A stretch of DNA of 64,000 bases, taken from assembly GCA_951406725.2 (NCBI GenBank), contig OX597815.1, positions 166,160,001-166,224,000 of the forward strand, written 5' to 3'. The DNA is from Octopus vulgaris. Its lineage: Eukaryota. This document shows, in pieces, positions 10,590 to 60,152 of this stretch. The stretch's first letter is position 1, and every line of letters begins with the position of its first letter. Below the pieces are notes generated by a model. The model saw nothing but the letters and a program-made list of their open reading frames with translations. It did not search any database and was not told where the DNA came from. The position numbers and the translations under genes are program-made.

Positions 10590-10972
10590 GCTTCGAATTT
10601 TGGCACAAGTCCAGCAATTTCGGCGAGGGGTATGCTGATTACATCGAACCCAGAGCTCAACTAGAACTTATTTTATCGACTTCGAAAGGATGAAAGGCAA
10701 AGTCAACCTCGACGGGATTTGAACTCAGGATGTGAAGACGAACGAAATACCTATTTCTTTACTACCCACAAGGGGCTAAACACAGAGAAGACAAACAAGG
10801 ACAGACAAACGGATTAAGTCGATTATATCGACCCTAGTGCGTAACTGGTACTTATTTAATTGACCCCGAAAGGATGAAAGGCAAAGTCGACCTCGGCGGA
10901 ATTTGAACTCAGGACGTGAAGACGGACGAAATGTCGTTAAGCCTTTTGTTCAGATTGCTAACTATTCTGCCA
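10590..10972 (-). mobile_element. Nested/tandem SINE family D copies
   Basis: Two Nin-like cores joined at AAAGAAATAG|GTATTTCG (plus strand cgaaatacctatttcttt, ~10743-10760). Confidence 0.8.
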
Positions 10973-12499: not shown

Positions 12500-13560
12500 A
12501 TAAAACAAAGTTATTTTATCCCACACGGGTAGAAATATAGTGAAAATAGAAGCTGAAAATGCCCTGAGAATATTTAAAATATTTTTTATCAATATATTTT
12601 AAGCTTTAACCGGTTTCACAGTTTATTTTGATTGGTAGAAGATAGTCACATGACTGGTCTTAAAAATTTTCGTAGGTTCCCCACTACGTCCGTGGGTTAG
12701 TATCAAGTGACACTGTATGGCGTCGTAAGTTAAAGCTGACAGAGTTGACTGAACAAGTCTAAACAATAAATGCTCTGAATGTTTTCTATCAAGTGTTTGT
12801 AGAGAATGGACACATGATTAAGTTTATAACCTTTTGCGTTTCCCGCTACGTCCGTGCGTTAGTGTCACGTGACAGTATATTTTGCGCATAAAAAGAAGGC
12901 CGACACAGTTGAGTGAACATGTTTAGTTATAATCAAGGCACGCCAAACTTAAGCCGTCTGGTGGAAGAGTGGACAGGAGTCATTTGTATGTAGTCCAATA
13001 GCTAAAATTTAGGTTGTTAGCTGTGTAGCTTACTCATGGTAGGTGACAGAATGAATTTTGTGTGTGAATAGTTATTTGTGTATATAATCTGTTAAAGTTT
13101 GTTAAGTCTTGGTTTGTATTTTTGATTGAAAGTATTCGCTGAACATAGTTAGAGTGGGAAGACCTGGAATCTGGAAAACTTATTTTTTGCATAGTGGAAT
13201 CTGTTTAGTACTGGGTTCTTGTATTTGCTGTCGGTAAATGGTTAGTCGATTTCTTAGAGTAAGCTTTGTTTGATCTATGTAATCTTCATTACGTCCTTCA
13301 CATTTGATAGCGCATATTAAATACCTTGAAGAACATGTAAAGTGATTTTTTACGGTAAAAGTCTGTCCTGATTTGAATTCGTATGTTGTGTCTTTAATAA
13401 GGTTGATGCAGGTCCCGCAATTAGGGTAGTCAGATTTTTTGACTGTTGATGTAAGAATTGTGGAAGGTAATGTAGCGCTTGCGGGGAACTTTTTGGTGAA
13501 TTTTGTCTTTTACTTTTGCTTATTGTGTATTTGATTATTTTGTATATTTTTTAGCTTTAC
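12500..13560 (-). mobile_element. Penelope-like element (Neptune-type) 3' fragment: zinc-finger/GIY-YIG remnant plus pseudo-LTR
   Basis: Minus 13449-13180 translates STVKKSDYPNCGTCINLIKDTTYEFKSGQTFTVKNHFTCSSRYLICAIKCEGRNEDYIDQTKLTLRNRLTIYRQQIQEP (CxxC, LIY/YIG-like motifs, catalytic R); degenerate HHR downstream at 12602-12737. Confidence 0.85.
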
Positions 13561-16496: not shown

Positions 16497-16735
16497 ATAC
16501 CTATTTCTTTATTGCCCACAAGGGGCTAAACATAGAGGGGACAAACAAGGACAGACAAAGGGATTAAGTCGATTATATCGACCCCAGTGCGTAATTGGTA
16601 CTTATTTAATCGACCCCGAAAGGATGAAAGGCAAAGTCGACCTCGGCGGAATTTGAACTCAGAACGTGACGACAGACGAAATACGGCTAAGCATTTCGCC
16701 CGGCGCGCTAACGTTTCTGCCAGCTCGCCGCCTTA
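16497..16735 (-). mobile_element. Full-length SINE family D (Nin-domain-like)
   Basis: AAGGCGGCGAGCTGGCAGAAACG...GAGTTCAAATTCC (A/B boxes), Nin-like core, tail AAAGAAATAGGTATT; TSD-like AACGATAATAATAC on both sides. Confidence 0.9.
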
Positions 16736-26569: not shown

Positions 26570-26690
26570 CATCCGAAATTGCAAGGATGATCTGGATCTT
26601 GACTGAAGATTAGAGGCTTCGAATGACCCGTCCGTTTCGTATCGTCTATTTGAATGTTTTGCGTTCTTGTCCCATTTTGTATTTATATAT
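26570..26690 (+). mobile_element. 5'-truncated copy of the rearranged-hammerhead repeat
   Basis: CATCC-GAAA-TTGC-AAGGAT-GATCTGG-ATCTTGA-CTGAAGA-TT-AGAGGCTTCGAATG...GCGTTCTTGTCCCA; homologous to 28700-28940 and 45350-45690. Confidence 0.8.
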
Positions 26691-26815: not shown

Positions 26816-28619
26816 GTAATATAATAATAAGAGTAAATAATTTCTATAAAGGTTTTAAAAAAAACCCAATTATTTACTGGTAGAATTCGGTATGTAAATA
26901 TAGCCGATTACCGGCAGGAACTTCTGTAAAGTTCAGTATATATATTGTATATAAGAAAAAGGGGACAGGCAAGCAGGTTGCTTGACCGCATACCGAAAAA
27001 ATAGAAATAGCAGTCAAGAATGCTTATTTCTATCAAAGTTGGACTCCGGGCACGACAAACCCTGTAATTCACATATGCAAAACAGAAGGAATAGATAACG
27101 AAAACGAAGTCTGGTGGTTATCTGTGAACATCATGTTTCGGATTATAAACATATTGAATATATATTTCATATATATTTTTGATATATATTTCATATACAT
27201 TGCATATATATTTCACATCCTTCTTCAGCACAGCTTTCCATTGAAAAAGATTTATCATAGATTTATCAAATGCTACGTACCTCAAACCTTCTGACCATGC
27301 GACATCAAAATATTTGAAGAAAGTGAGCAAAAGCTAAACCTACATAGACGTTTGAATTCGTAAATCTTCCCTCCAAAATCTTGCCATGCGCACTACAAAA
27401 ATAGTTCCATAAAATTGGGAACTATCGGGTTGTCATAAGGGAGTGAAAAATCCAAATAGTAATATAATAATAAGAGTAAATAATTTGGATTTTTTTATGA
27501 CAACCCGATAGTTCCCAATTTTATGGAACTATTTTTGTAGTGCGCATGGCAAGATTTTGGAGGAAGATTTACGAATTCAAACGTCTATGTAGGTTTAGCT
27601 TTTGCTCACTTTCTTCAAATATTTTGATGTCGCATGGTCAGAAGGTTTGAGGTACGTAGCATTTGATAAATCTATGATAAATCTTTTCAATGGAAAGCTG
27701 TGCTGAAGAAGGATGTGAAATATATATGCAATGTATATGAAATATATATCAAAAATATATATGAAATATATATTCAATATGTTTATAATCCGGAAACATG
27801 ATGTTCACAGATAACCACCAGACTTCGTTTTCGTTATCTATTCCTTCTGTTTTGCATATGTGAATTTACAGGGTTTGTCGTGCCCGGAGTCCAACTTTGA
27901 TAGAAATAAGCATTCTTGACTGCTATTTCTATTTTTTCGGTATGCGGTCAAGCAACCTGTTTGCCTGTCCCCTTTTCTTATATACAATATATATACTAAA
28001 CTTTACAGAAGTTCCTGCCGGTAATCGGCTATATTTACATACCGAATTCTACCAGTAAATAATTGGGGTTTTTTTAAAACCTTTATAGAAATTATTTACT
28101 CTTATTATTATATTACTATTTGGATTTTTTTATGACAACCCGATAGTTCCCAATTTTATGGAACTATTTTTGTAGTGCGCATGGCAAGATTTTGGAGGGA
28201 AGATTTACGAATTCAAACGTCTATGTAGGTTTAGCTTTTGCTCACTTTCTTCAAATATTTTGATGTCGCATGGTCAGAAGGTTTGAGGTACGTAGCATTT
28301 GATAAATCTATGATAAATCTTTTTCAATGGAAAGCTGTGCTGAAGAAGGATGTGAAATATATATGCAATGTATATGAAATATATATCAAAAATATATATG
28401 AAATATATATTCAATATGTTTATAATCCGGAAACATGATGTTCACAGATAACCACCAGACTTCGTTTTCGTTATCTATTCCTTCTGTTTTGCATATGTGA
28501 ATTACAGGGTTTGTCTTGCCCGGAGTCCAACTTTGATAGAAATAAGCATTCTTGACTGCTATTTCTATTTTTTCGGTATGCGGTCAAGCAACCTGTTTGC
28601 CTGTCCCCTTTTTCTTATA

Positions 28620-28622
<3 letters not shown>
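26814..28622. mobile_element. ~637-bp hammerhead-bearing unit in three near-identical copies: one inverted (26814-27485) and two tandem (27484-28118, 28119-28622)
   Basis: Direct sequence identity; HHR CTGTG-CTGAAGA-A-GGAT...ATCC(G)-GAAA-CATGATG-TT-CACAG at 27122-27233(-), 27698-27810(+), 28335-28447(+); both outer ends abut (TA)n. Confidence 0.85.
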
Positions 28623-28700
<78 letters not shown>

Positions 28701-28776
28701 GTATAAATAAAAATATATACAAACTGGGACAAGAACGTGAAACACCTAGAAGACGACACAAGAACCACAGGACAGG

Positions 28777-28922
28777 ACATTCGAAGCCCTCAGTCATCAG
28801 TCAAGAACCGGATCATCTTCGCAATTTCGGCTGATTAATCTTGAGATTGCTCCGACCTGGGCAGCCCCCAAGGGAAATCTAAGCCAAGCGCATTAGATCC
28901 CTTGGAAGAGAGCTTCGAATGT
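28777..28922 (-). ncRNA. Candidate non-circularly permuted (pseudoknotted) hammerhead ribozyme, copy 1
   Basis: GGCTG..GCAA-TC-TCAAGA..CAGCC-GAAA-TTGC..TCTTGA-CTGATGA with a 15-bp closing helix; covaries with 45411-45552. Confidence 0.7.
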
Positions 28923-28966
28923 ATACAACACAAGGACGAAAATATATATATATATACACACATATA

Positions 28967-29194: not shown

Positions 29195-29584
29195 AGCTAG
29201 GCACAAACTCCTAAATTTTGGGGGAGGGAACCAATCGATTAGATTGACCCCAGTACACAACTAGTGCTTAATGTATCGATCCTGAAAGGACGGAAGACAA
29301 AGACAACCTCGGCGGAATTTGAACTCAGAACGGAAAGACACACAAAATACCTATTTCTTTACTACCCACAAGGGGCTAAACACAGAGGCGACAAACAAGG
29401 ACAGACAGACGGATTAAGTCGATTATATCGACCCCAGTGCGTAACTGGTAATTAATTTATCGACCCCGAAAGGATGAAAGGCAAAGTCGACCTCGGCGGA
29501 ATTTGAACTCAGAACGTAGCGGCAGACGAAATACGGCTACACATTTCGCCCGTCGTGCTAACGATTCTGCCAGTTCGCCGCCTT
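29195..29584 (-). mobile_element. Nested/tandem SINE family D copies
   Basis: Full copy 29350-29584 joined to a headless unit at aaatacctatttcttt. Confidence 0.85.
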
Positions 29585-45292: not shown

Positions 45293-45410
45293 TGATATAT
45301 ATATATATATATATATATGTGTATGTATAGAATTTAATATAAAATATAAATTACAAAGTGGGACAAGAACGCAAAAACACACAAGGAGACGACACAAAAA
45401 ACCGACGGGT

Positions 45411-45552
45411 CACTCGAAGCCTCTAATCTTCAGTCGGGAACCGGATCATCTTAGTGATTTCGGCTGTTTAATCTCGATATCACTCCGATCCGGCCAGCCC
45501 CAAGGAAAATCCAAGCCACAGGCATTGGATTTCTTGGAAAGAGGATCGAATG
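45411..45552 (-). ncRNA. Candidate non-circularly permuted hammerhead ribozyme, copy 2 (within element ~45350-45690)
   Basis: GGCTG..AGTGA-TA-TCGAGA..CAGCC-GAAA-TCACT..TCCCGA-CTGAAGA. Confidence 0.7.
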
Positions 45553-45702
45553 TATACGGAACAAAGACAGGATGCCACACGAATGTAAATACAAGAAACA
45601 AAATTATATATAAAACAGAAATAAAAAACACGAAGGTGGACAGTACAAAGGACAGGAGCGTCTTACGACTTTAGACAATTTGAAACTTATTTATATACAC
45701 AC

Positions 45703-53681: not shown

Positions 53682-53754
53682 GGCCGCATGGCCTAGTGGA
53701 TAAGGCGTCTGACTTCGAATCAGAAGATTGCGAGTTCGAGTCTCGTTGTGGTCG
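53682..53754 (+). tRNA. tRNA-Arg-TCG: tRNA-Arg (anticodon TCG)
   Basis: 73-nt cloverleaf: acceptor GGCCGCA/TGTGGTC, anticodon arm TCTGA-CTTCGAA-TCAGA, T arm GCGAG-TTCGAGT-CTCGT, discriminator G; T5 Pol III terminator at 53766-53770. Confidence 0.92.
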
Positions 53755-59722: not shown

Positions 59723-60152
59723 TAGGGCTGCGGGTTGGCAGAATGGTTAGCACGCTGGAGGAAAAGCTGGCAGAGACGTTAGCACGCCGGGCGAAATGCT
59801 TAGCGGAATTTCGTCTGTCGCTACGTTCTGAGTTCAAATTCCGCCGAGGTCGACTTTGCCTTTCATCCTTTCGGGGTCGATAAATTAAGTACCAGTTACG
59901 CACTGGGGTCGATATAATCGACTTAATCCGTTTGTCTGTCCTTGTTTGTCCCCTCTGTGTTTAGCCCCTTGTGGGTAGTAAAAGAAATAGGTATTTCGTC
60001 CGTCGCTACGTCTGACTTCAAATTCCGCCGTGGTCGACTTTGTCATTCAACCTTTCGGGGTCGATGAATTAAGAACCAGTGATACACTGGGTCGATGCAA
60101 TCGACTAGTCTCTTCCCACCAAACTTCAGGCCTTGTGCCTTTAGTAGAAAGG
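59723..60152 (+). mobile_element. SINE family D nested in an older family D copy
   Basis: Older head, then a young copy (~59766-59990), then the older body resuming at GGTATTTCGTC with a different tail. Confidence 0.8.

Follow-up and report, generated by a model that had tools for sequence, protein, structure and literature searches.

A candidate self-cleaving hammerhead with its core opened between A9 and G10.1 in a high-copy repeat of Octopus vulgaris

Hammerhead ribozymes have been divided into the conserved blocks S, G and C, and the arrangement S-G-C (type-SGC) has been reported to cleave in HRIMA-1 and its variants (Eckert et al., 2023; PMC10085705). In the description of type-SGC given there, a linker of about 3 nt leads from stem I to stem II, a helix joins the other strands of these two stems, and block C is assumed to be impossible to interrupt. 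Work on viroid hammerheads has reported that the CChMVd (+) ribozyme tolerates one extra nucleotide between A9 and G10.1, and that AUA was the slowest cleavage triplet in purified ELVd assays (PMC3705267, PMC1636495). In animals, metazoan non-LTR retrozymes have been proposed to be non-autonomous Penelope derivatives (PMC7229834, Cervera and de la Pena, 2020; bioRxiv 10.64898/2026.07.22.740005, Li et al., 2026). For the Penelope-like Naiad elements, the relevant sections of Craig et al. (2021; PMC8557442) report no canonical hammerhead, and eight elements, including Ovul and Esco, are flagged there as 'HHR_half_core'.

The window analysed here is a 64,000-nt stretch of O. vulgaris DNA, to which all positions below refer. 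It contains copies of a high-copy, non-coding repeat (family 1), likely mobilised as a Penelope-like element, whose 3' region carries an S-G-C core opened between A9 and G10.1. From motifs, comparative evidence and copy structure, we judge with good confidence that this region folds into an active self-cleaving ribozyme cutting after AUA at 45478. The letters listed in the initial annotation were all found in place on the minus strand, and the cut that it predicted, 45478/45477, agrees with the motif letters. The features are as follows.

45323..45691 (ends approximate), minus strand: copy A, a 5'-truncated non-coding Penelope-like repeat of subfamily A, lying between microsatellite runs
45541..45553, minus strand: P0a, 5' strand of the outer helix predicted to close the opened core, paired in the MFE fold
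45500..45538, minus strand: hairpin P1, stopping immediately 5' of G10.1 (TCCAA/TTGGA in A, TCTAA/TTAGA in B)
45499-45495, minus strand: GGCUG, 5' strand of stem II (IIa), first base G10.1, apart from CUGANGA
45493-45487, minus strand: P3a, CCGGAUC, of the stem I-II interaction helix, pairing with 45447-45441 (pair probability 0.99)
45472..45484, minus strand: block S (AGUGA, U16.1, H17, predicted cut, UCGAGA)
45484-45480 / 45457-45453, minus strand: stem III, AGTGA/TCACT
45479 and 45478, minus strand: U16.1 and H17 (A), with the predicted cut at 45478/45477
45477-45472 / 45439-45434, minus strand: stem I, TCGAGA/TCCCGA
45453..45466, minus strand: block G, CAGCC GAAA UCACU (CAGCC-GAAA at 45466-45458)
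45447-45441, minus strand: P3b, GAUCCGG, partner of P3a
45427..45439, minus strand: stem I strand UCCCGA, then the core CUGAAGA (CTGAAGA at 45433-45427, A9 at 45427)
45411..45424, minus strand: P0b, 3' strand of the outer helix, starting 2 nt after A9
28705..28944 (ends approximate), minus strand: copy B, subfamily B, layout as in copy A, with an AUC triplet and a predicted cut at 28845/28844
26570..26690, plus strand: copy C, the third window copy, beginning about 10 nt after the predicted cut and directly after a (TA)n run

Read along the minus strand from 45553 to 45411, the order is P0a, P1, GGCUG, P3a, AGUGA-U-A, the cut, UCGAGA, a 5-nt linker, CAGCC-GAAA-UCACU, P3b, UCCCGA-CUGAAGA and P0b. 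Every hammerhead core motif is present. A CUGANGA core stands behind stem I at 45439-45427, and GAAA, the A15.1-U16.1 pair, stem III with two two-sided pairs and an NUH triplet are all present. Stem II is closed by G10.1-C11.1 and is fully Watson-Crick (5/5) with the strand lying 22 nt upstream of the predicted cut. What differs is the connection between A9 and G10.1, which in a hammerhead is direct or made through 1–2 nt; here A9 is at 45427 and G10.1 at 45499, and the strand after A9 is unable to pair with C11.1.

One of the closest described relatives is type-SGC, with which the octopus element shares the S-G-C order, a short stem I-stem II linker (5, 3 and 2 nt in the three families considered here; typically 3 there) and a P3-like interaction helix, the latter with two two-sided pairs. 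In type-SGC as described, CUGAnGA continues straight into stem II (PMC10085705), whereas in octopus block C is interrupted: its stem II strand is found 5' of block S, and two helices bridge the gap. The proposed layout is a type-SGC hammerhead re-opened between A9 and G10.1, with its old ends joined and the opening closed by two helices. The initial idea of a rearranged hammerhead is supported, but this is not a plain non-circular permutation, since the 5' strand of stem II is detached from CUGANGA. The CChMVd (+) hammerhead tolerates an extra A at the same backbone position, but as a single nucleotide in the classical topology, with no chain break closed by two helices (PMC3705267, PMC1636495). 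A full-text literature search, thin on subscription papers and some supplements, found no description of the split A9/G10.1 connectivity. The octopus element would presumably work in a hammerhead-like way, yet it appears to fall outside every described type.

The connectivity is further illuminated by two families unrelated to family 1 in sequence. Family 2 was found by descriptor scan and has 3,028 first-look candidates; stems I, III and P3 vary among its subfamilies while their pairing is kept. Family 3 was found from a Naiad tail, and the motif of the published octopus Naiad tail has 248 exact matches. Each of the six consensuses that represent the three families has a stem II partner strand 22 or 29 nt upstream of the cut, matching perfectly over 5 bp; the helix reads GGCUG/CAGCC, GAAGG/CCUUC or GACAC/GUGUC, always with G10.1-C11.1 as the first pair. 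Inspection of the six consensuses by eye shows the strand following CUGANGA paired instead to the stretch immediately 5' of hairpin P1, and shows P1 finishing at G10.1 or one base short of it. The cleavage triplets AUA, AUC, GUC and GUA are all NUH. These two sequence-unrelated families of the same layout support the proposed stem II.

One could instead suppose that the RNA cleaves in another form, with stem II formed by the strand after CUGANGA as in an ordinary type-SGC, or with two repeats or two molecules cooperating. The strand after A9 in family 2a (AGGGG) does make 4/5 pairs with CCUUC, the linkers from P3 to the far end of stem III are only 2 and 5 nt and may put strain on a fold within one molecule, tandem copies are frequent, and dimeric action has been reported for amphibian retrozyme hammerheads (PMC7229834). 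However, in families 1 and 3 this downstream strand forms just 0–2 of the 5 pairs, and pair 10.1-11.1 fails in 6/6 consensuses, including 2a (A·C), whereas the upstream strand pairs 5/5 in every one. Subfamily D of family 1 has also lost the downstream GGCU and kept the upstream GGCUG. We regard such a form as improbable. In the same comparison, ordinary type I, II or III folds and an intact SGC fold were rejected.

The two window copies are members of separate subfamilies. They are 77% identical and differ as the initial annotation described, while the 40 best genomic matches scored for copy A are 95–100% identical to it. That annotation would have failed had the differences been private mutations, and they are not: in clusters defined by overall similarity (30 copies of A, 34 of B), ATATCGAGA is present in 29/30 A and 0/34 B copies, TCCCGACTGA in 26/30 and 0/34, AATCCAATG in 30/30 and 0/34, and CTGAAGA in 30/30 and 0/34, while CTGATGA occurs in 33/34 B and 0/30 A copies. 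Because they split the two clusters almost completely, the changes are subfamily-wide. Their compensatory nature holds in part, as some are two-sided, but the stem I A·C is fixed in subfamily A and is a disruption. Within A, the stem III strand is TCACT in 11/30 copies and TTACT, with a G·U pair, in 16/30; for this reason only one stem III pair changes two-sidedly throughout the subfamily. P3 is perfect in A, as had been noted, and also in G and D, but the consensuses of B, C and F hold an A·C mismatch. The N7 change, first written as T to A, probably ran the other way, since U is largely B-specific and A is the common state. Given that AUA was slowest in the ELVd assays, and with the A·C in stem I, subfamily A may cut more slowly than its sisters. 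In the MFE fold of copy B (28768-28932, minus strand), the CUGAU core is instead taken up in pairing with AUCAG. Such an inactive alternative could slow cutting and let long copies be made.

Covariation in family 1 was scored on eight subfamily consensuses of 5–36 copies each, sorted by diagnostic letters and hence partly circular. Two-sided changes occur at 6 of the 23 scored pairs, two each in stem III, stem I and P3, compared with a mean of 2.1 (p = 0.002) in a null run on seven subfamilies (all but E), where partner columns were shuffled within the set that can pair in a single reference subfamily. Paired cells amount to 168/177 across the eight consensuses, a measure that does not beat the null (p = 0.17). 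No invariant core position varies (0/11) versus 28/63 other positions (Fisher p = 0.003, treating positions as independent and with several variable columns contributed by the shifted P3 of subfamily E). CUGANGA differs at N7 only, and no consensus has G at H17, where A, C and U all occur, consistent with the proposal that the core varies only where a hammerhead tolerates it. Where at least two subfamilies had been suggested to keep the fold, at least eight do so: their core is unchanged, pairs in stems I, III and P3 have changed on both sides, and the predicted fold is conserved under selection. GGCTG/CAGCC is indeed unchanged, as claimed, but invariance alone is no evidence of covariation; because stem II is invariant within family 1, it gains no covariation support from that family. 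Chance motifs in a repeat, with drift accounting for the differences, would be favoured by the shortness of the core words and by the mere 23 pairs scored, but the same layout in three unrelated families, the invariant core, the covariation and the pile-up of 5' ends described below make this reading negligible.

Abundance in the genome was assessed with a 34-place family-1 pattern, which has 7,809 exact matches in the 2.8 Gb genome (a lower bound on copy number) whereas the same pattern reversed has 5. Scanning 664 kb (600 kb of evenly spaced genome and the window) with a descriptor gave 5 hits versus 0 on the reversed sequence; the five comprise two window copies, two of an unrelated family and one evidently spurious hit. 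No part of the window reached the gathering score of an Rfam hammerhead family, and 45360-45640 had no hammerhead match at E<=10. A metagenome scan with a 40-letter family-1 pattern gave 0 matches.

If the RNA cuts itself, insertions made from the cut product might be expected to begin near the cut, and the 5' ends of copies bear on this. A sample of 94 copies on contig C1 was picked solely by a 26-letter 3'-end pattern; 34 extending beyond -100 and one cut by the locus edge were left out, and 59 remain. Of these, 33 begin within -3..+20 of the predicted cut, compared with about 8 expected, while the 24-nt stretches on either side hold 4 each. A scan test with 20,000 uniform draws never placed more than 22 ends in any 24-nt window. 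A rough flag marks 30 of the 33 as single terminal copies. The ends lie mostly 1–20 nt past the cut, with 4/33 at position 0, including three TA-ambiguous ends. Family 2 behaves similarly, as 3/4 incidental truncated copies begin about 5–7 nt after the cut, and one family-1 locus (L414) starts exactly at the cut and continues for one full unit. Among long copies the 5' ends are spread out without forming a second peak, and upstream partial repeats in tandem copies mostly do not start at the cut. The pile-up window is also the richest in AT/TA dinucleotides (5, versus 1–4 elsewhere), so microhomology with (TA)n targets contributes to the pile-up. Long copies carry a TATA-like element about 265–280 nt upstream, and together with a CACGTG box it falls about 265–375 nt upstream. 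The distance to the TATA-like element, some 270 nt, argues against a transcription start causing the pile-up.

The pile-up can also be read as the mark of a hammerhead-derived structure that does not cleave and that serves reverse transcriptase recognition or stability, with the enzyme stalling in the knot and joining (TA)n by microhomology to give short copies. The smear of 5' ends over +1..+20 in an AT/TA-rich window, and the fixed mismatches in stem I (A) and P3 (B, C, F), would suit such a structure. Yet an enzyme moving 3' to 5' would meet P0b and stem I first (+38..+70), where only 3–4 ends per 24 nt are found; the abrupt fall in the number of ends just upstream of position 0 (4 vs 33) agrees with a physical end of the RNA; and a non-cleaving fold has no need for H17 never to be G in any consensus. 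A non-cleaving structure is therefore unlikely, although it is the most credible of the alternatives that we considered. Self-cutting is likely instead, because the catalytic motifs are kept and the 5' ends of many copies lie immediately downstream of the predicted cut.

The repeat itself resembles both retrozymes and Naiads. Long family-1 copies consist of head-to-tail units spaced 758–872 nt apart at tandem loci, and their 3' ends lie at a fixed position within (TA)n; in some cases a short tail reaches into the following unit. No relevant open reading frame was found in the units, the longest (106 aa) being at locus L424. Subfamily E forms seamless 843-nt multimers, as at L424, with 865 exact hits. 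At loci L417 and L424, this subfamily has near-identical multimers of up to four units and a 22-nt insertion in hairpin P1; its shifted P3 abuts a 6-bp stem III, and the distance from GGCUG to the cut is still 22 nt. Metazoan retrozymes are likewise described as non-coding head-to-tail repeats with one hammerhead per unit (PMC7229834; bioRxiv 10.64898/2026.07.22.740005), and each family-1 unit holds one putative ribozyme. In contrast, the retrozymes described there carry type I hammerheads and give 170–400-nt RNAs, whereas family 1 has longer units and a rewired S-G-C ribozyme, and is known from genomic copies. With the Naiads, as characterized in PMC8557442, family 1 shares (TA)n targets, variable 5' truncation, tandem pLTR-like repeats and short 3' tails, but it has neither the open reading frame with N-terminal GIY-YIG and RT nor sequence similarity to the Naiad tail.

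Extension of long copies in the 5' direction had been expected to reach an RT/GIY-YIG parent. Family 1 itself gave only the non-coding tandem units, but a Penelope link emerges through sister family 3, a tail of which lies 1.1 kb downstream of a Naiad-like RT remnant on the same strand (locus L452). In the supplement of PMC8557442, the Naiad_Obim and Naiad_Ovul tails show by eye the full split layout and correspond to family 3; the Naiad_Esco tail is nearly complete, with 4/5 pairs in stem II. No such motif was seen by eye in the Omin, Adux and Skow-1 tails, the other three of the six inspected. Among 148 GIY-YIG matches, with 30 loci and 20 extended loci examined, no autonomous element with a family-1 tail was found, and family-2 hits near GIY-YIG loci are separate insertions. 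With five PLE proteins as tblastn queries, scattered remnants turned up, but in no case did one continue into a family-1 tail. The Naiad RT query had 152 matches, and the 150 listed all lie in open frames of <=300 aa. An intact PLE with a 781-aa RT and C-terminal GIY-YIG open reading frame is abundant and young and ends in (TA)n (loci L391-L396, L409 and L410, e.g. G000:C16:20834300-20843600). No CTGANGA was found on its sense strand within 1.7 kb behind the open reading frame in 8/9 copies, and the ninth had one distant hit; this hammerhead-less element is a possible helper. About 500 nt behind the open reading frame at locus L398, a minimal type-I-like hammerhead was seen by eye, with CCGAAGA replacing CUGANGA and a palindromic GTAC stem III. 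A Penelope-like GIY-YIG remnant in the window (13192-13476, minus strand) is about 42% identical to the 781-aa protein.

Taken together, these data make it probable, at somewhat lower confidence than for cleavage of copy A, that an animal genome contains thousands of copies of an active hammerhead outside the six-permutation scheme, its core strand interrupted between A9 and G10.1 and kept together by two helices. This hammerhead would be the hidden ribozyme of at least the cephalopod Naiads and of their non-coding tandem parasites, and its cut would set the 5' end of most short insertions. In the knotted fold proposed here, P0 and P1 would stack and keep A9 beside G10.1, substituting for the absent backbone link, while P3 would provide the contact between stems I and II. 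RNA transcribed from an internal promoter would then be cleaved after H17 in every repeat. Reverse transcription would start at the fixed 3' end, about 120 nt downstream, and run off the cut RNA, giving many short copies; uncut or re-ligated (circular) RNA would allow read-through into long and tandem copies, by analogy with the retrozymes as described in PMC7229834 and bioRxiv 10.64898/2026.07.22.740005. The helper is likely a Naiad-type enzyme.

If this is true, the stated rule that the CUGANGA block is uninterruptible is broken, and non-circular hammerheads extend from environmental RNA into animal genomes. The apparent lack of hammerheads in Naiads would be explained, with standard descriptors missing a whole class. 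Also, the pile-up of 5' ends would count as a rare genomic trace of ribozymes cutting during Penelope-type retrotransposition.

The window holds several further features. A tRNA gene at 53682-53754 (plus strand), with the anticodon UCG read from the alignment, is its sole Rfam match above gathering score. Inverted repeat arms of about 500 bp at 26937-27438 and 28130-28632 are 99–100% complementary around a 691-nt centre, and the whole (26937-28632) resembles a young non-autonomous DNA transposon or foldback element. In addition, a SINE-like repeat of about 215 nt occurs at 10758-10972, 16508-16725, 29358-29573 and 59765-59982, its copies being 89–95% identical.
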